DNA from: Mobula hypostoma
Taxonomy: Eukaryota
Direction of reading: 5' to 3'
Assembly: GCF_963921235.1 (NCBI RefSeq)
Contig: NC_086097.1
Coordinates: 40,178,001 to 40,242,000, forward strand
DNA length: 64,000 nt
Within the stretch, counting starts at the first letter, position 1. Each line of letters starts with the position of its first letter. Made by a program: the position numbers and the translations under genes. This document shows, piece after piece, positions 1-50,043 of this stretch. The notes under the pieces were generated by a model. That model was given only the letters and a program-made list of their open reading frames with translations. It did no database searches and was not told the DNA's origin.

Positions 1-2829
1 GATGAGGTATAATCACAACTAGTGGGATGATTTACAACAGAAAGCAACAAATACTGGACTAAAAGTGTTATACTTGAATGCACGCAACATAAGAAATATA
101 ATGGATGATCTTGAAATTCAGCTACAGACCGGCAAGTATGACGTTGTGGCCATCTCTGAAATTTGGCTACAGGATGGCTGCCATTGGGAGCTGAATGTCC
201 ACGGATATACAGTGCATCGAAAAGATAGGTTAGTAGGCAGAGGGGTTGGTGTTGCCCTGTTTATAAGGAATAATATTACATCATTAGAAAGGGATGACAT
301 AGGATTGGGAGGTGTAGAGTCTCTATGGGTTGAGTTAAGAAATGGCAAGAGTAAAAGGACCCTAATGGCAGTTGTATACAGGCCTCCAAACAGCAGCCAG
401 GATGTGGATTACAAATTACAGCAGGAGATAGAAAAGGTGTGTCAGAAAGGCAATGTCAAGATAATCGTTGGGGATTTTAACATGAAAGTGGATTGGGAAA
501 ACCAGGCCAGCGCTGGACCTCAAGAGAGAGTATTTGTAGAATGTCTCAGGGGTGGCATTTTAGAACAGCTTGTTGTTGAGCTTCCTAGGGGATCGGCTGT
601 GCTGGATTAAGTGTTTTGCAATGATCTGGAGGTGATAAAGAGAGCTTAAGGTTAAGGAACCCTTAGGGATCAGTGATCACAATATGATTGAGTTCACTTT
701 GAAATTTGAGAAGGAGAAACTAAATTCCAATATGTCAATATTCCAGTGGAATAAAGGAAATTACAATAGCATGGGAGGGGAACTGGCCAAAATTGACTAG
801 AAAGATATACTAGCAGGAAGGACAACAGCGCAGCAATGGCTGGAGTTTCTGTGAAAAATGAGGGAAGTGCAAAATAGATATATTCCAAATAAGAAGAAAT
901 TTTCATAGGGAAGAAGGACGCAACAGTGGCTGACAAGTGAAGTCAGAGCCAAAGTAAAAGCAAAAGAGAGGGCATACAAAGAAGTCAAAGATAGTGGGAA
1001 AATAGGGGATTACGAAGCTTTTATAAACTTGCTGAAGGAAGCTAAGAAGGTCATTAGGAAGGAAAAGATGAATTATGAAAGGAAGCTGGTGACTAACATC
1101 AAAGAAGATACTTAAAACTGTTTTAAGTATATCAAGGGTAAAAGAGAGTTGAGGGTAGATATTGGACTAATACAAAATAATGCTAGAGATATTATAATGA
1201 GAGATGCAGAGACAGCGGAGGAACTGAGTGCATATTTTGCATTAGCCTTCACAGTGGAAGACACCTGCAGTATACTGGACATCCAAGAGCATCAGGGAAT
1301 GAAGTATGTGCAGTGAAAATTATGACTGAGAAGGTGCTCAGGAAGCTTTATAGTCTGAGGGTAGATAAATCTCCTGGACCTGATGGAATGCACCCTTGGG
1401 TTCTGAAGAAAGTAGCTGGAGAGATTGCGGAGGCATTAACAATGATCTTTCAAGAATCAATAGATTCTGGCATTGTACCAGATGACTGAAAAATTGCAAA
1501 AACTACTCCACTATTTAAGAAGGATGAGAGGCAGCGGAAAGGAAACTATAGACCTGTTAGCCTGACATCAGTGGTTGGGAAGTTGTTGGAATTGATTGTT
1601 AAAGGATGAGATTATGGAGTACCTGGAGGCACATGACAAGATAGGCCAAGGCCTGAAAGGAAGATCCTGGCTGACTAAACTACTGCAATTTTTTGAGGAA
1701 ATTACAAGCAGGGTAGACGAGCAGTAGATGTGGTGTACTTGGATTTTCAGAAGGCCTTTGACAAGGTGCCGCACATAAGGCTGCTTAGCAAGTTAAGAGC
1801 CCATGCAATTACAGGGAAGTTACCAGCATGGGTGGAGCATTGACTGATTGGCAGAAATCAGAGAGTGGGAATAAAGGGATCCTAGTCTGCCTGACTGCTG
1901 GTTATCAGTGGAGTTCCACAGGGGTCGGTGTTGGGACCGCTGCTTTTTACGATGTACGTCAAAGATTTGGACTATGGAATTAATGGATGTGTGGCTAAAT
2001 TTGCCGATGATACAAAGATAGGTGGAGGAGTGGGTAGTGTTGAGGAAACAGAGAGCCTGCAGAGAGACTTAGATAGTTTAGGGGAATGGGCAAAGAAGTG
2101 GCAAATGAAATGCAATGTTGGAAAGTGAATGGTCATGCACTTTGGTGGAAGAAATAAATGGGCAGATTATTATTTAGATGGGCAAAGAATTAAAAATGCA
2201 GAGATACAAAGGGACTTACCTAAAGGTTAACCTTCAGGTTGAGTCGGTGGTGAAAAAGGCGAATGCAACATTGGCATTCATTTCTAGAGGTATAGAATAT
2301 AAGAGTCGGGATGCGATGTTGAGGCTTTACAAGGCACTCCAGAGACCATACTTGGAGTATTGTGTGCAGTTTTGGGCACCTTATTTTAGAAAGGATATAC
2401 TGACATTGGAGAGGGTTCAGAGAAGATTCACAAGAATGATTCCCGGCATGAAAAGATTACTGTATGAGGAATGTCTGGCAACTCTTGGATTGTATTCCCT
2501 GGAGATCAGGAGAATGAGGGGGATCTCATAGAAACATTTCGAATGTTGAAAGGCCTGAACAGATTAGATATGGCAAAGTTATTTCCCATGATAGGGGAGT
2601 CTAGGACACGAGGGCACGACTTCAGGACTGAAGGACGACCAAGTCATTGGGTGCATTTAAGACAGAGATAGATAGGTTCTTGATTAGCCAGGGCATCAAA
2701 GGGTATGGGGAGAAGGCAGGGGAGTGGGGTGACTGGAAGAATTGGATCAGCACATGATTGAATGGCGGAGCAGACTCGATGGGCCAATTAGCCTACATCT
2801 GCTCCCATATCTTATGGTCCTATGATCTA
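1..2829 (+). mobile_element. CR1 (HER1-like) LINE, decayed ORF2 through 3' tail; runs off the left edge of the window
   Basis: APE endonuclease motifs (YLNARNI, YDVVAISEIWL, VYRPPN, VGDFN) at 65-610; RT motifs (LGPLLF, KFADDTK) at 1928-2128; C-terminal LEYCVQFWAP; ends in CTTATGGTCCTATGATCT. Many stops and frameshifts. Confidence 0.95.
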
Positions 2830-21720: not shown

Positions 21721-24700
21721 TCAGAAACTGGATAATTCTTGTGGCACTTAATGCGTAAAAAGGGCAGAATAGGATCCAATTTTTAAGTATATTTTTCATG
21801 GGAACAAATTTCTTCTTAGAGGGGAAATATCTTAAACATTGTTAATTTAGGTTGAAAACAGAAAATACTAAAAGTTCACGACAAAGGATGTAGAAAAGAG
21901 ATATTAACATTTTAGACAGTGTTAGGGAAATTAATTTGTTAAGGAAATTCAATTAAAGTTGTTCACAAATAAATTGTACATGGACTTCAAAGTGACTAGA
22001 GAATTCCTTTATTCATGAATAAGGGAAGAGTGGCTCACTAACAGTCTGATTGCCAGCTCTTCAAAAAAGCAATAGGCATAGCCTTGTTTATACATGCACA
22101 CACAAAGTCGATTAAATCAGCCGAAGTTAGAAAGAAATTCAATCTGTGTAACTTATCCCATTCTACAATGTTAGAGGCAGCCTGAACCACCATTTGTCTG
22201 CAACTCGCAGAGACAAGTTGTTATTCATCCTTGAAACTAAGATAAATTATTGCAAGCTTGCTGAGAACCCAAGGCTGAATGGTGAATTTTTATTTATGAT
22301 ACGATTGAAGGTTCATTAAATCTTTAAATCTGGTAAGTTCATTAAAGTACAAATGTTTAATTTGTTTTACATGTTACACCTGACAAGTGAAGGAAAATCA
22401 GGATACCCCTTAATGGTCAGAGACTTGACAGCCCACAGGGTCCTCCCCACAATTTATGACCTTCACTGTCTTCATCTTGTTTACATGGCTGTGTTATGCA
22501 CAAAAGCTCGGATATGGTTTGTTAATAAATGGAAGGTGCAGGGTGTTAGCAACTCAGATATTTTAACCCTGTATTCAGAATTTTCTTCCACAGATAGAGA
22601 CCCTTCCTCTGAGGTGGAAGCCATTAAAATTAAGGAATACCCTACATATCTAATAATCAATAAATTTAATTGCTAATGAACAAATATAGCGGTGCCCAAA
22701 TGGAGATCAGAAGCCTGAGGAGACATATTTTACTCAGGTTTGCTGATTGAGCAAAAAAGGCAGCAACACAGCAGTTTGGGCCAATCAGCATTCAGGATTG
22801 ATCGGCAAGAACAAATTAAACTAAGGCATGGGCAAGCAGAGCGTGGAGAGCTTCAGCTCTTAGAGGGTTCACCAAGGAGCTTTAGTAAGAGAAGGCAAAA
22901 ACGCTATAAGTAGAGTTTTTCCCCCACAATTTATTGTTTTTCCTTCTTTATAGTCGCTCAGTTAAGAACAGTAGAGGTGACAGACAGGATAGTGAAATGC
23001 TCCTCTTGCGTGATGTGGGAGGTCAAAGGGTCCTTCGGTGTCCTTGACAACTACATCTGCGAGAAATGCATCCAGCTGTAGCTTCTAGCACTCCGTATTA
23101 AGGGGTTGGAGCTGGAACTGGATGAACTTTGTATAATTTGGGAGGCTGAGGTGGTGATAGATAGGACATATGGAGAAGTAGTTAAAGTGCAGGACACAGG
23201 AGACTGATGAGAGTCAGGAAGGGGAAAGAGGTTAAGGAGCCAGTGCAGGCCATCCCCCTCAACAACAGATATCTCACTCTGGATACTGTTGGGGGGAGGA
23301 TGACCTAGGAGAGGAAAGCCATGATGGTCAGGTCTCAGGTCTCTGACACTGAGTCTGGCTCTATGGCTCAGAAGAAAAGGAGAGAGAAGAAGAAAGCTAT
23401 AGCAATGGGGATTCATTAGTTAGGAGAGCAGAAAGGAGGTTCTGTGGACAAGAATGAGATTCCCAGATGGTATATTGCCTCCTGGGTGCCAGGGTCTGGG
23501 ATATCTCAGATTGAGTCCTCAACATTCATAAATGGGAGGGTGAACAGACAGAGGTTGAGGTCCATGTAGGTACCAATGACATAGGTAGAAAGAGTGACAA
23601 GGTTCTGTAAAGTGATTTCAGGGTGTTAGGTGCTAAGTTAAAGAGCAGGACTGACAGAGTTATGATTTCAGGATTGCTACGCATGTCATATGCCAGTGAG
23701 GCCAGAAGTAGGAAGAGTATACAGCTTAAGACATGGCTAAGGAGTTGATGTAGGAAGGAGGACATGAGATTTTTGGATCACTGGGCTTTCTTCCAGGGAA
23801 GGTGGTACCTGTAGAGAAGAAATGGTTTGTACCTGAATTGGAAGGAGACTAATAGGAAGGTTTTCTAATGTTGCATGGGGGTGGGAGGGCATGGTTAAAA
23901 TAAAGTTGCAGGGGTATGGGAACCAGAGTGCCAGAACAGATAGTGGAGATGTTCTGGAGATAGATGTTATTAAGACTTCAGACAACATCAGGATTCAAAA
24001 TGTTAGGTATTCGCGACTAATGTCCTGAGTTGCATATTTTTCATTGCAAGAAATATCATAGGAAAGGCAGATGAGTTCAGGGCATGGATCAACAACTGGA
24101 ATTATGATATTGTAGCCGTTAGTGAGACAGTTACAGGAGGGACAGGACTGGCAGCTCGATACTTGGGGTTCTGTTGTTTTAGATGCGTCAGAGTGGGAGG
24201 GATTAAGGGAAGAGGGGTGGCATTACTAGTCAGGAAAATGTCAAGGCAGTGCTCAGTCAGGGCACACTGGAGAACTCGACTAGCAAAGTGTTATGGGTGG
24301 ACCTGAGTAATAAGAAAGGTATGTCCATGTTAATATGGCTACATTACAGACCACCCAACAGTCTGAGGAATATAGAGGAACAAATTTGCAGGGAGATCAC
24401 AGACTGTTGCCAGGAATTTAAAGTTGTTATAGTAGATGATTTTAACTTTCCACATATTGACTGGGACTCTCATACTGTAAAAAGATTAGATGGGATAGAG
24501 TTTGTCAAATGTGTTTAGGGAAGTTTTCTTAATCAGTTTAGAGAAATCTCAATGAGAGGTTTTGTGATGAATCCCCATCGTTATACCTTAATCTGCTATT
24601 CAGGGAATGAGTCAGGCCAGGCGACAGAAGTTTGTGTAGGTGAATACTTTGCATTTAGTGATCACAATGCCAATAGTTTCAAAGTAAATATGCAAATAAA

Positions 24701-39853: not shown

Positions 39854-42800
39854 CCATCTTGTAGGCACTAAACAAACTCACTCTCTTGAGATCCATTTCC
39901 AAACAGATTTTGGCAATCTACCTACATGTTGAAATCTCTTATGACTATCATATTATTGCCCTTTTGACACGTCTTTTCTATTTCCTGTTGTAATCTGTGG
40001 TTCACATCCCAACTACTGTTGTGAGGCCTGTGTAAAACTGCCATCAGGATCCTTTTACCCTTGCAGTTTCTTAACTCAACCCACAAGGATTCAACATCTT
40101 CTGATCCTATGTCACATCCTTCTTCTGATTTGATGCTATTCTTTACCAGCAGAGCCACGCCATCCCTCTGCCTACTTTCCCATCCCTCGGATACAATTCG
40201 TAATCTTGGACATTTAGCTCCCAAGTACAACCAACCTTCAGCCACGACTCAGTGATGGCAACAACATCGTACTTGACAATCTGTAATACTTCAACAAAAT
40301 CATCCACCTTATACTCAGTGCATTGAGATATAACACTTTGAGTACTATATTTGCTACCCTTTTTGATTCTGCATCCCTAATGCACTGATGCTCATCCTGC
40401 TGGCTGCAATTATGTCCTATCATCTGCCTGCCCTTCCTGATAGTCTGACTGCACGCTATCTTTGCTTTTTCTCTTACCAATCATCCTTTCCTGTGTCCTT
40501 TCATTCTGGTTCCCATTCCCCTGCCAAATTAGTTTAAACCCTACCGAACAGCTCTAACAAACCTGCCCGTGAAATTACTGTTTCTCCTCTGGTTCAGGTG
40601 CAACCCGTCATTTTTGCACAGGATTGATTGCAGGACCTGTTTGCTTTTCCTTCCTATGTCATTGGTACCAATATGTACCAAGACATCTGGCTGCTCTCCC
40701 TGCCTCTCTAAAATGTTGAGGACATGATCCAAGGCATCCCTAACCCTGGCACCCTGGAGGCAACGTACTATTCAGGTGTCCCATTCACATCCACCAAAGC
40801 TTATTTCTGTTCCCCTGACTACTGAGTCCCCTATCACTACTGCTCCCCTCTTCTCCCTCTTTCCCTTCTGTACCTCAGACCTACGCTCTGTGCCAGGAAC
40901 CCGGTCTCTGTGGCATTCCTCTGGGAAATCATCCCCCACAGCAGTATCAGAAACAGTATACTTATTATTGAGGGGAATGGCCACAGGGGTACTCTGTGCT
41001 AACTGCCTATTCACATTTCCATTTCTCCTGAGTGTCACCCAGCTACTCAGCTCCTGCAACTTCAGGGTGACTGATTCTCTATAACTCTGATCAATAATCT
41101 CACTCTCCCACACAAGCTGTCGATCCTCCTGCTGCAGCCGGATGCACTTCACACCAATATAGTTCCCTGGGTAAGTCTGGGTCTCCCAGGACTCCAACAT
41201 CCAGCATGAAGAATGAACCACAGCCATTTACCACACTCGGTACAGTATGAGGAAATATAAGGGAAACTTAACAGAAGCTTACCCAGAAACAACACCTCTT
41301 TCGAGCTGCAGCCTCCTTTGAGCCAAAGCCTGGCACTCCTACTCTCACCAATGAGCCTACTCCCAACAATGTCCCCTCCGCACCACCTGTCCTTTCAGTA
41401 CTTCTAAACAAGCGTCACCAATCTGCAAGAGACCTCGTTGCTGTGGCCTGCTCCTGCCGCCGATTGGGCTGTCAGAATGAGCAGCTCAATGGTTTAATTT
41501 ACATTAACTTTAGATAGATAGTCTTTGGAAAGGATAATTAAAGATCTGGAGTGAGATAAATGGATTTCTAGGAGGAGATTTGCCATTCCGGAGCTGTTCT
41601 TGACTGGCTGTTCACTTCACCTTGCCATGGTGTCTCTGGCCTTACAATATCTGATGGGAGCTAAGAGCAAGAAACTTCACATTTCCCATCATTATCATCA
41701 TTCATCTAGATTGATAACTGCCTTGAAGATGTGGAGCCATTGTTTAAACTCTGAGGACTAGGACTAGGACTGGGGACTAGGGGCTACATTAACGTGTAGT
41801 CGATAATCAGCTCTTTGGTTTTGCTGCGAGATTGCTGTTTTTCTTATTCAGACAGTGCATATCCATTTGATCCACTGTTATGTTATGGATCAATGCAAGA
41901 TTGGCTACTCTGCTTTACTTTGCAATCCATATAACTTACTGTTGTGTGGAAACTGGCTGCCTTACTTTATTAGAATTGATCATAATCCATCACATGAGCT
42001 TTTGTTTTATCCAAAAGAGCTGGGCATCTCTGATCAGGAATGCAAAGTTATCTTACTGCTATCATGTTCTCAGAATTACTTTGAGTCAAACACTACCACT
42101 TAAAATTGTAACCTTGTACAGGAACAAAAATACCACAAGGGGATAGTGAAGCCTTTTGTTTCTTTAACTTACACCTAGCAATTGCTATAAAAGTTACTCA
42201 TCAACTGTTTTTACCCAAGCTTTGATGCTGGCAAAACCCTTGTTATTTTAATGGCCACCTTTTATATTTTTATTGACTTCCATTTCACAAGGCACATGTC
42301 TCGCCTTTCTGTGATTTGTAGAGCACATCATATGATTGATTTTCCAGGCTGGACCATAACCACTGTCCCAGGAGAAGCTACTCCTTCTAAAGAATACTTT
42401 ACAGACTACACATCTGTGACATTAACACATTCTAGGATTTTATTTAAACCTAGCCTCCAGTTATTTCTTATGAGTAGTACTTTTCCTATCTTATAATATT
42501 TTAAATAAGCTCTGAACATATTAGAACATGCCTTCCTCGTTGTTTAGCATCAGTGGCATCTTTTCTGTGTGACCTTGGGCTGTGGACAGTGAAAGCAAAA
42601 CTGTAAGTTGGGGAAGCACAATGGGTGAAGTTTGGATTTGAGAGATTGTGTCAAAAAGATCCCAACAGAGATCTTTTCTGTGAACCTTTTTGTTTAATCA
42701 TTGGAAACTTCCAGGTGCAGGCCTGCTACCCAGAATCCACTGATCCTACTCCCAGTGTGCCCTTGCTTTCCTGGTATGAGTGTATTGCATAACTATGAGA

Positions 42801-43338: not shown

Positions 43339-44275
43339 ATGAGTGTGAGGGCAGCTTGTTGTTCTCGGTGCCAGATGTGGGAGGTCCTGGAGACTCCAGG
43401 CCTCCCGGACGTCGACACTGCGCCAGGAGCACAGAGATGCAGCTTCTAAGAGACCGTGTTAGGGAACTGGAGCTGCAGCTCGATGACCTTCGTCTGGTCA
43501 GGGAGAGTGAGGAGTTGATAGAGAGGAGTTACAGGCAGGTGGTCACACTGGGGCCATGGGAGGCAGACAAGTGGGTCACGGTTAGGAGGGGGAAGGGGAA
43601 GAGTCAGGTAATAGAGAGTACGCCAGTGGCTGTGCCCCTTGACAATAGGTACTCCTGTTTGAGTACTGTTGGGGGGGGGACAGCTTACCTGGGGGAAGCA
43701 ACAGTGGCCGTGCCTCCGGCACAGACTCCGGCCCTGTAGCTCAGAAGGGTAGGGAAAGGAAGAGGAGGGCAGTTGTGATAGGGGACTCGATAGTAAAGGG
43801 GTCAGATAGATAATTCTGTGGACGCAGTCTGGAGACCCGGTTGGTAGTTTGCCTCCCTGGTTCCAGGGTCCAGGATATTTCTGATCGCGTCCAAGATATC
43901 CTGAAGTGGGAGAGAGAGGAGCCAGAGGTTGTGGTACATATAGGTACCAATGACATGGGTAGGAAAAGGGGAGAGGTCCTGAAAGGAGAATATAGGGAGT
44001 TAGGAAGGGAGTTGAGAAAAAAGACCTCAAAGGTAGTAATCTTGGGATTACTGTCTGTGCCACGCGACAGTGAGAATAGGAATGCAATGAGGTAGAGGAT
44101 AAATGCGTGGCTGAGGGATTGGAGCAGGGGATAGGGATTCAAGTTTTTGGATCATTGGGACCTATTTTGGCGCAGGTATGACCTGAACAAAAAGGACGGG
44201 TTACACTTGAATCCGAGGGGGACCAATATTTTGGCGGGGAGATTTGAGAGGGGTACTGAGGTGACTTTAAACTAG
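43339..44275 (+). pseudogene. CR1 ORF1: zinc finger, coiled coil, SGNH esterase; disrupted
   Basis: MSVRAACCSRCQMWE; LRDRVRELELQLDDL; GDSIV; CLPGSRVQD; VVHIGTND; DGLHLN; ends ...VTLN*; internal frameshifts and stops. Confidence 0.9.
44266..44275 (+). promoter_or_regulatory. Candidate -1 ribosomal frameshift site T_TTA_AAC followed by TAG
   Basis: Heptamer is in X_XXY_YYZ phase in ORF1; the -1 frame TTT AAA CTA GAA TGG TTG runs open into the endonuclease with no upstream ATG. Confidence 0.65.
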
Positions 44276-47271
44276 AATGGTTGGGGGGTGGGAATCAAAT
44301 TAAAGAGGCTAGGAGAGAGGAGGTTAGTTCACAAATAGAGAAAGCTAGTAGACAGTGTGTGAGGGAGGATAGGCAGGGGACCAAGATCGGGAGCACTCAG
44401 ACCGAAGATGTAGGGGACAAGGAAGAAAAAGATAACAAAGTTGTTTGCTCCATTAAGGATAAAAAGAGAGTAAGAGGTGGAGAGTTTCTTAAATGCATCT
44501 ATTTTAATGCTAGGAGCATTGTAAGAAAGGTGGACGAGCTTAGAGCATGGATTGATACCTGGAAATATGATGTTGTAGCTATTAGTGAAACGTGGTTGCA
44601 GGAGGGGTGTGATTGGCAACTAAATATTCCAGGATTTTGTTGCTTCAGGTGTGATAGAATAGGAGGGGCAAGAGGGGGAGGCGTTGCATTGCTTATCAGA
44701 GAAAATATAACAGCGGTCCTCTGGCAGGATAGATTAGTGGACTCGTCTAGGGAGGCTATTTGGGTGGAATTGAGGAATAGGAAAGGTGTAGTGATGCTTA
44801 TAGGGGTGTATTATAGACCACCTAATGGGGACCGAGAACTGGAGGAGCAAATTTGTAAGGAGATAGCAGATATTTGTAGTTAGCACAAGGTTGTGATTGT
44901 GGGAGTGGGAGATTTTAATTTTCCACACATAGACTGGGAAGCCCATTCTGTAAAAGGGCTGGATGGTCAGGAGTTTGTAAAGTGTGTGCAAGGTAGTTTT
45001 TTGCAGCAATACATAGAGGTACCAACTAGGGAAGGGGCAGTGTTGGATCTCCCGTTAGGGAATGAGATAAGGCAGGTGATGGAGGTATGTGTTCGGGTCC
45101 AGTGATCAGAATATCATTAGTTTCAATATAATTATGGAGAAGGATAGGACTGGACCCAGGGTTGAGATTTTTGAATGGAGAAAGGCTAACTTTGAGGAGA
45201 TGCGAAAGAATTTAGAAGGAGTAGATTGGGACAATTAGTTTTATGGGAAGGATGTAATAGAGAAACGGAGGTCATTTAAAGGTGAAATTTTGAGGGTACA
45301 GGATCTTTATGTTCCTGTTAGGTTGAAAGGAAAGGTTAAAAGTTTGAGAGAGCCATGGTTTTCAAGGGATATAGGAAATCTGGTTCGGAAAAAGAGAGGG
45401 ATTTACAATAAATATAGGCAGCTTGGAGTTAATGAGATGCTCAAGGAATATAAAGAATGTAAAAAGAATCTTAAGAAAGAAATTAGAAAAGCTAAAAGAA
45501 GATACGAGGCAGCTTTAGCAAGTAAGGTGAAAATAAATCCAAAAGGTTTCTACAGTTATATAAATAGCAAAAGGATAGTAAGGGATAAAATTGGCCTCTT
45601 AGAAAATCAAAGTGGACGACTATGTGCGGAGCCAAAAGAGTTGGGGGAGATTTTGAACAATTTCTTTTCTTCGGTATTCACAAAGGAGGAGGATATTGAA
45701 TTGTGTGAGGTAAAGGAAACAAGAAGGGTAGTTATGGAAAGTATGACGATTAAAGAAGAGGAAGTACTGGCGCTTTTAAAGAATATAAAAGTGGATAAGT
45801 CTCCGGGTCCGGACAAGATATTCCCTAGGACCTTGAGGGAAGTTAATGTGGAAATAGCAGGGGCTCTGACAGAAATATTTCAAATGTCATTAGAAATGGG
45901 GATGGTGCCGGACGATTGGCGTATTGCTCATGTGGTTCCATTGTTTAAAAAGGGTTCTAAGAGTAAACCTAGCAATTATCGGCCTGTGAGTTTGACGTCA
46001 GTGGTGGGTAAATTGATGGAAAGTATTCTTAGAGATGGTATATATAATTAACTGGATAGACAGGGTCTGATTAGGAACAGGCAACATGGATTTGTGCGTG
46101 GAAGGTCATGTTTGACAAATCTTATTGAATTTTTTGATGAGGTTACTGGGAAAGTTGACGAGGGTAAAGCGGTGGATGTTGTCTATGTGGACTTCAGTAA
46201 AACCTTTGACAAGGTTCCACATGGAAGGTTAGTTAGGAAGGTTCAATCATTAATATTGAAGTAGTAAAATGGATTCAGCAGTGGCTGGGTGGGAGACGCC
46301 AGAGAGCAGAGGTGGATAACTGTGTGTCAGATTGGAAGACAGTGTGTAGCGGTGTGCCTCATGGATCTGTACTGAGTCCAGTGTTGTTTGTCATATATAT
46401 TAATGATTTGGATGATGGGGCGGTAAATTGGATTACTAAGTATGCAGATGATACTAAGATAGGTGGCGTTGTGGATAATGAAGTAGGTTTTCAAAGCTTG
46501 CAGAGAGATTTAGGCCAGTTATAAAAGTGGGCTGAAAGGTGGCAGATGGAGTTTAATGCTGAAAAATGTGAGGTGCCACATTTTGGTAGGACTAATCAAA
46601 ATAGGACATAGATGTAAATGGTAGGGTATTGAAGAATGCTGTAGAACAGAGGGATCTAGGAATAATAGTGCATAGTTCCCTGAAGGTGGAATCTCATGTG
46701 GATATGGTGGTGAAGAAAGCTTTTGGTATACTGGCCTTTATTAATCAGAGCATTGAGTATAGGAGTTGGGATATAATGTTGAAAATTGTATAAGGCATTG
46801 GTAAGCCCAAATTTGGAGTATTATGTACAGTTCTGGTCACTGAATTATAGGAAAGGTGTCAATAAAATTGAGAGAGTACAGAGGAGGTTTGCTAAAATGT
46901 TGCCTGGGTTTCATCTCCTAAGTTACAGAGAAAGGTTGAACAAGTTAGGTCTTTATTCTTTGGAGCGTAGAAGGTTGACAGGGGACTTGATAGAGGTGTT
47001 TAAAATTATGAGGAGGATTGATAGAGTTGACATGGATAGGCTTTTTCGATCGAGAGTGGGGGAGATTCAAACAAGAGGACATGAGTTGAGAGTTAAAGGG
47101 AAAAAGTTTAGGGGTAACATGAGGGGGAACTTCTTTACTCAGAGAGTGGTAGCTGTGTGGAACGAGCTTCCAGCAGAAGTGGTTGATGAAGGTTCGATGT
47201 TGTTATTTAAAGTTAAATTGGACAGGAAGGGAATGGAGTGTTATGGACCGAGTGCAGGTCGGTGGGACTAG
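44266..47271 (+). pseudogene. CR1 ORF2: APE endonuclease plus reverse transcriptase; disrupted
   Basis: IYFNARSI, YDVVAISETWL, YYRPPN, GDFNFP, KSPGPD, NYRPVSLTS, KYADDTK, C-terminal WNELP; several stops and frameshifts. Confidence 0.94.
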
Positions 47272-48808
47272 GTGAGACTAGGAGTTTGGCACGGACTAGA
47301 AGGGCCAAGATGGCCTGTTTCCATGCTGTAATTGTTATATGGTTATATGGTTAAAATATTTAAAGCAAAAACACTTCCCCAGAAGTTTTGGGCTGCAGCT
47401 TTCTAGGAATGATGCTGGGGAATCCCAGGTAGATCAGTTTCCACCACTGGAATTTGAGGCCAGTTGTCCAGTAAAGTCAGCACCTGTCACTCATGAGGGA
47501 CTGGACTCACAGGTGGAACCTGGGATTCTGGGAATTTCTTCAATGTGACAAGCAGTTCCCTTGTGAATCACCAGCCACCGTCAGCACAACACAGTCCAAT
47601 TTCTTCATAATGAACAGACGTCTAGAGCCAGAGGTCTAAATTTGTTGAAGATGCTGAAACTGAACAAAATAATTCTAACATTTTACAATCTGATTTTACA
47701 ATTCAGTTATTTTTCGGATCTGTACATGGTTGCACTATTTTCTAATTTTATAATTTCTTCCAGACTTTCAGTTTTCCCAAGGTATTTCTATTAATCCACT
47801 TGTGCATTTTCTATTTTCCCAATATTTTTATTATTAATTTTACATTTAAGAATACAGAGCACAAGAAAAAAAAAATCAATGCATTATACTAAATCGCATA
47901 TCAAGACCCTATATTCATATAGATTAATTAATTTGTAACATTGAAATATAGTAACTTTATTATATTAAGAAAATCTAACTCACTACCAAGACCGAAGCTG
48001 ATTAGTAAAGAAAAAAAGGGGGAAAAAATTATTAGTCATCATCTGTCCTTTAACGGCAAATTAAATGTTTTGAAAATAATTCCAAAATAGTCCCCACAAT
48101 GTTTGAAAATCTTGACTAGATTCAGAGATTGAACATCGAATCTTCTCTAAATTTAAACATGACATCATATCACGTAACCATTGAGCGTGAATAAGAGGGG
48201 CCGCATCTTTCCATTTAAGCAAGAGCGTCCTTCTGGCTAGAAGAGAAATAAAAGCCAAAATGTGCAAATCAGATGGCTCCAAAATAATATCCTTTCCTCC
48301 AACAATACCAAATAAAGCGGTCAAAGGATTTAACGTTAAGGTTTACTTTGAAAAGTATCGAGAAAGTTTGAAATACTTCTTTCCAATATTTTCCCAGACT
48401 CGGACATGTCCAAATCTTATGAATGAGTGAAGCTTCTCCATTATTATATTTATCACAATATGGAGATATATCTACATAAAAACGAGACAACTTATCCTTG
48501 GTCATATGGGCCCTATGGACAACTTTAAATTGAAGGAGAGAGTGGCGGGTGCATAACGAAGAAGTGTTGACCAATTTAAAAATTTGGTTCCAAGTTTCCT
48601 CAGAAATTGAAGTCTGTAAATCTTGTTCCCAAAGATTTTTAATTTTATCTAAAGGAACACTTCTCATTCCCAGCAGCATATTATAAATATTAGATATAAA
48701 TCCATTATAAAAAGGTTTCAAATTAAAAATTACATCTAATAGGTTCTTATCAGGACTTTTGAGAAATATACTCATTTGAGACCGTAAAAAATCTCTTATT
48801 TGTAGGTA

Positions 48809-50043
48809 CAGCTTTCCCCTGCTATCCGAAGGTAGAGCATTCCTATGAAATGGTTCATAAGCCGGAATGTCAAAAAGTGAATAAGCAATTTTTGAGCGTT
48901 CCCAGACCCAAAAAATAACCTATAATATCGTGCCAAATAACACATAAAACCTAAAATAGCAGTAACATATAGTAAAAGCAGGAATGATATGATAAATACA
49001 CAGCCTATATAAAGTAGAAATACTTTTCTGCAGCACTGTCTAGCGCAGTGAAATCTCACGGCAGCACTCTAGGCGCAAGCGCTCTCGGCAGAAACACTCT
49101 CTCCAGTAACCTTTAAGCTATGAAGCTGCCAGATCATACCAAATAACAGATAAAAATATACAGCCTATATAAAGCAGAAATAATGTATGTACAGTGTAGT
49201 TTCACTTACCGGAATCGGGAAGACTCAAATAAATTGCAATTTCTTCACAGTTAAACACTTGCTTATATGAATAACCAGCTTCTGTAATTAGTTTCTTCAG
49301 TTCTGCTGGGAACTTTTCGGCAGCTTCAGTATCAGTCAAAGCACTCTCTCTGGTAAACGTTAAACTATGAAGCTGCTCTCGCCTCAGAAACCGATCAAAC
49401 CACCCATGACTACCTTTAAATTCCGCTTTCGCAACACTTTCATCACCATTGTCCAGTGCTTTCTGTTTCAGCTTATTAAAAAGACTGACTGATTTCTCCT
49501 TAAGTATAACAAAACTTAACGGAACCCAACGCTTCGTACACCCATCAATCCACTCAAACAATAGACTTTCCACTTTATCGATTATTGGATGCTGACTAAG
49601 AGAGACGACTTTGCGACGAGCAGAACCAACAGTAACATGGGCAGCTTTCAAAATTCTTTCTGTCTGCGTATAAATAGTGTGAATAGTGGATGCAGGCAAG
49701 TTCAACGCGCGGACAATGTCCTTACTTCGTTCACCACGGTCGAAACACTTAATTAGTTCCAGTTTTACGCTAAGTGTAACACCCTTACGAGCTCTTTTAG
49801 GCTTTTCCGATACCTTAGAACTCCTCTTGCTAACGGATGCACAAAATAAATTGAGATAACGCACCCGTTTAAGCAATGGCAGCTAGAATGCAGTTCCGGG
49901 GGAGGAGCTTGGCTGTTCGGGCGCGCGCTAACAGTTTCGTAACAGTGAAAACATATTCTATTAGCGAAAACAGGTAACTAATGTAGGTCTTTCGTAACAG
50001 CGAGTTGTCGTAAAGCGAATGTTCGGAAAACGGGGGCCACCTG
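48809..50043 (-). mobile_element. Tigger/pogo-family DNA transposon, internally deleted (1235 bp)
   Basis: TA TSD at 48807-48808 and 50044-50045; imperfect 22-bp TIRs CAGCTTTCCCCTGCTATCCGAA / CAGGTGGCCCCCGTTTTCCGAA (16/22); L1 is contiguous across it. Confidence 0.93.
49202..49876 (-). pseudogene. Truncated Tigger transposase: HTH-psq and CENP-B-type HTH, DDE domain deleted
   Basis: RKGVTLSVKLELIK...LNLPASTIHTI; VESLLFEWID; FKGSHGWFDRFLRR; stops just after QVFNCEE (family consensus FNxDET); the frame starts at TTG. Confidence 0.88.

Follow-up and report, generated by a model that had tools for sequence, protein, structure and literature searches.

A conserved slippery heptamer and fixed G run at the ORF1–ORF2 junction of CR1 retrotransposons suggest probable −1 programmed frameshifting

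A 64,000-nucleotide stretch of the Mobula hypostoma genome (assembly GCF_963921235.1, contig NC_086097.1, positions 40,178,001 to 40,242,000 of the forward strand), hereafter called the window and numbered from its first letter, carries on its + strand a near full-length, decayed long interspersed nuclear element (LINE) at 43.1–47.35 kb. Its first open reading frame (ORF1, 43339..44275, +) comprises an N-terminal Cys motif, a coiled coil and a C-terminal SGNH esterase, and its second, likewise decayed (ORF2, 44488..47271, +), an APE endonuclease followed by a reverse transcriptase, as read from the translation and, for the endonuclease, from Pfam. The esterase matches PF13472 (GDSL/SGNH esterase) with an E-value of 2.8e-5, which is under the curated Pfam cut-off in this broken piece, while an ORF1 profile matches the ORF1 esterase of ZfL2-1 (4C1B) with an E-value of 1e-41; the endonuclease matches PF03372 (Exo_endo_phos, E = 6e-8), and the YADD motif of the reverse transcriptase can be read directly in the translation near 46440. 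By its esterase ORF1 and its APE/reverse transcriptase ORF2 the element is a canonical CR1 LINE, and it shares this layout with the canonical CR1 described in the consulted parts of PMC13343379 (section 15) and PMC3905857; by eye, a short unit appears to be repeated near 47332–47353, where no poly(A) tail is visible. In a tree built from the esterase, and not from the reverse transcriptase, the element groups with vertebrate proteins (support 99/96). Among the matches listed, the nearest named relatives of its proteins come from rays and skates, the nearest to ORF1 being an intact Mobula hypostoma protein at 85% identity. The copy itself is dead, as both reading frames carry frameshifts and stops: ORF1 has two frameshifts (~43415 and ~43680) and three stops, of which those at 44094 and 44131–2 are private to this copy when compared with contigs from four runs.

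At the junction between the two reading frames, ORF1 ends GTG ACT TTA AAC TAG, such that its last two codons, Leu-Asn, form the heptamer T TTA AAC (44266..44272, +) in the X XXY YYZ phase of −1 slippery sites. The heptamer is followed directly by the stop codon (44273..44275, +; TAG here, TAG, TAA or TGA in relatives), a 7-nt spacer (44276..44282, +) that is variable in sequence and fixed in length according to column counts over ten junctions, and a run of G (44283..44288, +) that begins 10 nt past the heptamer. Between 44260 and 44883 the −1 frame has no stop, and from the heptamer it leads through a linker of 72 codons (44272..44487, +), free of both stop and ATG, to the first strand of the endonuclease at 44488. 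At this junction no AUG in the frame of ORF2 overlaps the ORF1 stop or lies near it; the first in-frame ATG is at 44794, deep inside the endonuclease, and a loose-end consensus from one run lacks even that one. The original prediction, which had claimed an in-phase heptamer at this very ORF1 end, an open −1 frame running through a linker of about 75 codons and a first Met well inside the endonuclease, is thus confirmed on the sequence, with a linker of 72 codons. However, the same heptamer occurs 24 times in the window on both strands, so that its presence here is by itself within chance, and the case therefore rests on conservation and not on the single site.

Animal sequences found within metagenome and genome collections supplied further junctions, as did run contigs. 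Among 29 de-duplicated loci that were selected for their similarity to the esterase, irrespective of the motif (17 of them from one assembly, G001), the exact heptamer is present in 23 and a heptamer with at most one mismatch in 27, and GGGG stands exactly 7 bases past the stop position in 23; L108, a distant esterase element without this junction, was kept in the set as a miss. Ten junctions were in addition picked by eye to span the diversity, all of which have the heptamer. In eight of these ORF2 is in the −1 frame and open from the heptamer to the endonuclease, over linkers of 29–84 codons, and the other two are decayed copies, one of which (L046) was counted as such since its automatically assigned endonuclease position is a false match. 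Seven of the eight open junctions are without a Met ahead of the endonuclease; the −1 phase of ORF2 and the missing start codon, both of which had been singled out beforehand as features to be checked in relatives, thus hold beyond the window. The stop codon directly follows the heptamer in nine of the ten, and in eight of the ten a −1-frame stop lies only 3–18 nt upstream, which leaves little room for a different shift site. Related linkers among the variants listed in the run contigs are shorter by 33, 36, 78 and 81 nt (hand count), all multiples of three. None of the variants listed falls at 44260–44301, an observation that is given no weight here because the listing is cut short. One element, L127, is naturally intact, with an ORF1 of 357 residues followed by a −1 frame of 962 codons whose first Met falls after the CLNARS motif of the endonuclease.

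The junction also recurs in published consensus sequences. When the PMC13343379 supplement was searched by the motif, and hence not in an unbiased way, 18 CR1-labelled rows among the 44 matches had the motif at the end of ORF1, as judged from the first 400 letters of each row. Judged from the row prefixes, their hosts include alligator, crocodile, bearded dragon, bullfrog, coelacanth, bowfin, elephant shark, rays and sharks. Four G at the same spacing are found in 7 of these 18 rows, and a G run lies nearby in most of the others. Two shark consensuses, SquAca_CR1-3 and SquAca_CR1-18, also have the heptamer, a stop and G-rich bases 5′ of ORF1. Scans of virus contigs yielded no relatives. Counts of the junction pattern as a whole are not part of the evidence, since the pattern was itself drawn from these junctions. 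As far as sequence comparison can establish it, and here the support is good, the junction signal is real and family-wide in CR1.

The conservation extends to the individual nucleotides. In six diverged elements the Leu codon is always TTA, the Asn codon always AAC and the base before them always T, a choice for which codon usage predicts a frequency of 0.025 per lineage. As a control, of 21 other residues that are invariant in the esterase of the same six elements just one keeps a single codon, and of 7 invariant endonuclease residues none does. Conservation of the heptamer including its synonymous positions had been set in advance as a check, and it was borne out.

The C-terminus of ORF1 can also be followed at the protein level. 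Of 181 ORF1 homologs found, 120 were listed, many of them near-copies of one family, and 96 of the 120 end in Leu-Asn; the named ones belong to rays, sharks, an eel, turtles (snapping turtles included), a snake and a lizard. Of the representatives at 50% identity, the best 150 yielded 96 with the DGxH motif and a tail of 20–45 residues, and 67 of these end in Asn, as LN (49), GN (12), KN (3), SN (2) or EN (1). The terminal tripeptide is compatible with X XXY YYZ in 63 of the 96, against a background of 3.4% and against 9 of 96 when the tripeptide is taken one residue earlier. The residues ahead of the dipeptide follow suit: Gln (9), Ala (2) or Ser (1) stands before GN, Ser or Ala before KN, and a residue lacking a U-ending codon precedes LN in only 1 of 57 cases, the corresponding numbers for the next three positions being 12, 14 and 15 of 57. 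The LN, GN and KN ends would fit the heptamers U_UUA_AAC, G_GGA_AAC and A_AAA_AAC, respectively, the latter two as predicted from protein, and these are three of the four heptamers that PMC5009743, in the part consulted, names as most shift-prone. In an esterase tree from which the C-terminus was left out, GN and KN ends group in one supported subclade among LN lineages. In a further subclade 6 of 11 proteins have [S/T/R/A]-K-N at one fixed position, with a tail behind it that is not conserved, and another (P0255, P0277, P0280, P0291 and P0213) ends in Gly-Phe-x or Phe-Phe-x, which at the level of protein is compatible with G_GGU_UUU or U_UUU_UUY/A at least one codon before the stop.

From the heptamer, the frame, the nucleotide-level conservation, the lack of a usable AUG and the fixed G run we infer that canonical, esterase-ORF1 CR1 LINEs probably express ORF2 by −1 programmed frameshifting, which would yield an ORF1–ORF2 fusion. 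In such a model the majority of ribosomes would terminate at the ORF1 stop and release the ORF1 protein (ORF1p), whereas in a minority tRNA-Leu and tRNA-Asn on UUA AAC would re-pair one base back on UUU AAA. The shifted ribosomes would read CUA next and go on through the linker into the endonuclease and reverse transcriptase, giving a gag-pol-like product that in the window copy would read ...V-T-L-N-L-E-W-L-G-G-G... and in the intact L127 would join 357 and 960 residues (∼150 kDa), with the G run 10 nt past the heptamer as the likely stimulator. Tandem slippage would account for the heptamer, its fixity at the codon level, the apparent swaps among three heptamers, the frame and the missing AUG. 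In the database entries P0026 and P0085, a one-base change lets the protein continue from the esterase across the junction and on into the endonuclease, which mimics the predicted fusion.

Several observations weigh against this model. Among the 96 representatives, 33 have no compatible tripeptide, and while some of these are broken copies the SN and EN ends are left unexplained; moreover, the protein counts are not phylogenetically independent. The DNA of the GN, KN and GF lineages was not found in scans of 179 genomes, in which only the already-known assembly matched, nor did a search for longer, fused proteins have any match, a negative that carries little weight, so that these variants are known as protein alone, and the 29 esterase-chosen loci draw more than half of their number from G001. 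An in-frame ATG lies at codon 4 past the heptamer in L002 (one of the ten junctions), and three shark consensuses among the 18 CR1-labelled supplement rows read TAATG, a stop–start overlap in the ORF2 frame. In human immunodeficiency virus (HIV) reporters a stop after the heptamer lowered shifting, as eRF1 competed with it (PMC4373837, in the part consulted). Finally, the downstream sequence offers no conventional stimulator: there is no clearly significant nested fold in the ten junctions (z −1.9 to +1.7 against shuffles), no conserved long-range pairing partner for the G run in five elements, and no Rfam match at the junction beyond chance (E = 0.71).

The original prediction had noted no clear pseudoknot, in line with these nested folds, and with no pseudoknot-like structure found the label 'coronavirus-type' which that prediction gave to the site fits the heptamer only. 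Where −1 sites are expected to have a stem-loop or pseudoknot 5–9 nt downstream, the CR1 junction has a fixed G run instead; the sequence downstream of the stop is C-poor, whereas any pseudoknot needs a stem. G occupies the first four positions of the run in 10 of 10 junctions, as a block of four to six G at a fixed distance of 7 nt past the stop, and it also occupies the −1-frame wobble positions within the run. A local stem was rejected as the stimulator, as no fold exceeded the shuffles, and so was a G-quadruplex as a general stimulator, as one is predicted in just two of the ten junctions. A constraint for Gly-Gly in the protein is an unlikely reason for the run, as its middle codon is GGG and the preceding third base G in all ten. 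The two stimulators originally put forward have fared differently: the G-rich run is retained, while the adjacent stop is not an obvious stimulator because of the eRF1 competition seen in the HIV reporters, which further implies that the efficiency of shifting in CR1 may be low. By analogy with the short C-rich motif that lies downstream of the −2/−1 frameshift site in arterivirus nsp2 and is no fold (PMC7618843, in the part consulted), the G run probably acts as a linear motif, that is, as a protein-binding or ribosome-contact site. The arterivirus motif is bound by nsp1beta and PCBP, in contrast to the G run, for which there is no known binding factor. Taken at the level of sequence, the CR1 junction is one that behaves like a −1 programmed frameshift site but without the usual folded stimulator.

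Slippage need not occur during elongation. If ribosomes instead terminated at the ORF1 stop, freed ORF1p, re-paired one base back on the heptamer and resumed in the −1 frame, both the heptamer and the G run would be required and ORF2p would be made as a separate protein, without a fusion. This is consistent with the stop abutting the heptamer, with the position of the G run, which with the stop in the A site would lie approximately at the mRNA entry channel, and with mammalian L1, whose ORF2 begins by AUG-independent initiation (PMC5009743, same part). However, the identity of the stop varies between TAG, TAA and TGA, one subclade has, at the protein level, its slippery-compatible tripeptide 10–12 residues ahead of the stop, and the −1 sites of Rous sarcoma virus (RSV) and barley yellow dwarf virus (BYDV) naturally have a stop right after the heptamer (PMC4373837, same part); we thus regard slippage after release as unlikely. 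Ordinary termination–reinitiation, which would use an AUG or near-cognate codon that overlaps the stop or lies immediately past it and would take the conserved bases as the reinitiation signal, has a precedent in the UAAUG of SART1 (in the part of PMC3708506 consulted) and could draw on the TAATG of the three shark consensuses and the in-frame ATG of L002. In the ten junctions, however, the codons that overlap the stop are GAA, ATT, GGT, AAG, GAT or GTT, mostly not start codons, and reinitiation would leave the X XXY YYZ pattern and the fitting GN and KN ends unexplained, which makes it improbable. A protein-level role for Leu-Asn at the C-terminus of ORF1p, with the slippery appearance as a by-product, has the strong conservation of the terminal Asn in its favor and is nearly excluded by the six-element control, in which neither the codons nor the third base before them vary, in contrast to other invariant residues; in addition, the penultimate residue alternates between L, G and K, in the structural model of the esterase the last helix ends before Leu-Asn, which sits on a tail that varies from 25 to 39 residues, and the start of ORF2 would be left without an account.

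The preferred model, −1 frameshifting during elongation, places CR1 next to several known systems, each compared here from the parts of the cited sources that were consulted. With retroviral gag-pol and coronavirus 1a/1b (PMC5009743) it shares the heptamer U_UUA_AAC and, as predicted from protein, G_GGA_AAC and A_AAA_AAC, a structural reading frame that comes first and an AUG-less polymerase frame in −1, and with RSV and BYDV (PMC4373837) the stop immediately past the heptamer. Unlike these retroviral and coronavirus sites, no stem-loop or pseudoknot was found in CR1 and a short G run stands at a fixed 10 nt instead; unlike retroviruses and coronaviruses, CR1 is a non-LTR (long terminal repeat) retrotransposon in which no protease is seen. 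Frameshifting in LINEs has a precedent, as Dictyostelium TRE5-A and TRE3-A, which are also APE-type LINEs, are stated to need a −1 frameshift for the translation of ORF2 (PMC5911963). They differ from CR1, which is animal-wide, in being amoebal and targeted to tRNA genes and in having a zinc-finger ORF2, and the passage in question gives neither a slippery site nor an experiment. SART1, with its UAAUG reinitiation, and mammalian L1 (PMC3708506, PMC5009743) resemble CR1 in their bicistronic LINE mRNA, and a few shark CR1 families read TAATG; in contrast to both, an AUG at or past the stop is lacking from most of the CR1 junctions examined, which have kept the slippery heptamer.

We found no account of CR1 ORF2 translation in the searched literature. 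In the consulted parts of PMC13343379 and PMC3905857 neither frameshifting in CR1 nor a signal at the ORF1–ORF2 junction is described, and the word 'frameshifting' has no match in the main text of either. Likewise, no report of CR1 frameshifting was found in the searched literature, including the covered portions of PMC5009743 (where CR1 is not mentioned), PMC3708506, PMC2734521, PMC8665684, PMC4120745 and PMC11835228; the original 1997 descriptions of chicken and turtle CR1 and Kapitonov and Jurka 2003 were outside this search, and a passing suggestion in the former is possible.

The window contains more CR1. A second, diverged copy (∼68% DNA identity to the first in ORF1) has the heptamer, TAA, 7 nt and GGGG at 40518..40538 on the − strand, and a third has a decayed junction at 23894..23914 (+) with two mismatches in the heptamer, TAA, 7 nt and GGGG. 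Decayed LINE pieces at 1–2650 (+), 22.9–27.6 kb (+), 37.5–41.4 kb (−), 48.1–50.2 kb (−) and 58.4–59.2 kb (−) represent further CR1 copies and one more distant reverse transcriptase fragment, and by eye the reading frames at 48269–48919 and 49202–49882 resemble another LINE end and a DNA-transposon fragment.

In seven esterase LINEs that fall outside the CR1-type clade (L011 at ∼1600, L014 at ∼2100, L019 at ∼690, L010 at ∼2000, L048 at ∼1940, L006 at ∼1840 and L027 at ∼720) ORF2 is in frame with ORF1 and a single stop codon lies between the two, with a Met soon past that stop in L048. This layout suggests that stop-codon readthrough may serve as a parallel route to a fusion. One lineage (L020 at 1015, L037 at 1435, L049 at 735 and L053 at 1325) ends its ORF1 in His-TGA followed by CT, UGA-C being a leaky stop context, and in L049 and L053 the same frame runs on for 131–168 codons into the endonuclease through a linker that contains a Met. 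In other esterase LINEs, L069/L086 (∼2314) and L111 (∼1945), ORF2 is in the −1 frame past CAG TAG and no classical heptamer is present. Among the sources of the CR1 junctions, two are bacterial assemblies, namely G001 (∼17.8 Mb, labelled as a Metamycoplasmataceae metagenome-assembled genome), with 17 animal CR1 junctions, and G002, with one near 1.418 Mb of its 1.4-Mb contig 2; their presence there points to host contamination or misassembly.

Taken together, a broader picture can be drawn tentatively, and as a whole we hold it to be more doubtful than its central step: the esterase CR1 clade, from non-vertebrate-type hosts to amniotes, would make its reverse transcriptase as an esterase–ORF2 fusion by a −1 shift, would have swapped classical viral heptamers and would stimulate the shift through an unstructured G run placed at a constant distance, while related esterase LINEs outside the clade may fuse by readthrough of a single stop. 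If so, the G run would represent a new class of cellular frameshift stimulators, one that is probably bound by a factor, and ORF1p itself might read it as feedback. Natural G-quadruplex stimulators were not then known according to a 2016 review (PMC5009743, in the part consulted), and the CR1 run is a candidate for a G-rich stimulator within a signal that spans 25 nt as a whole. According to PMC13343379, in the part consulted, CR1 dominates among the retrotransposon groups of most vertebrate species. A large animal-encoded family would join the natural cases of −1 frameshifting, and its stimulator would be something other than a fold. For the elements themselves, ORF2 proteins begun at the first Met would miss the first endonuclease motif, and a gag-pol-like fusion would set the ratio of ORF1 to ORF2 and keep esterase and reverse transcriptase physically linked.

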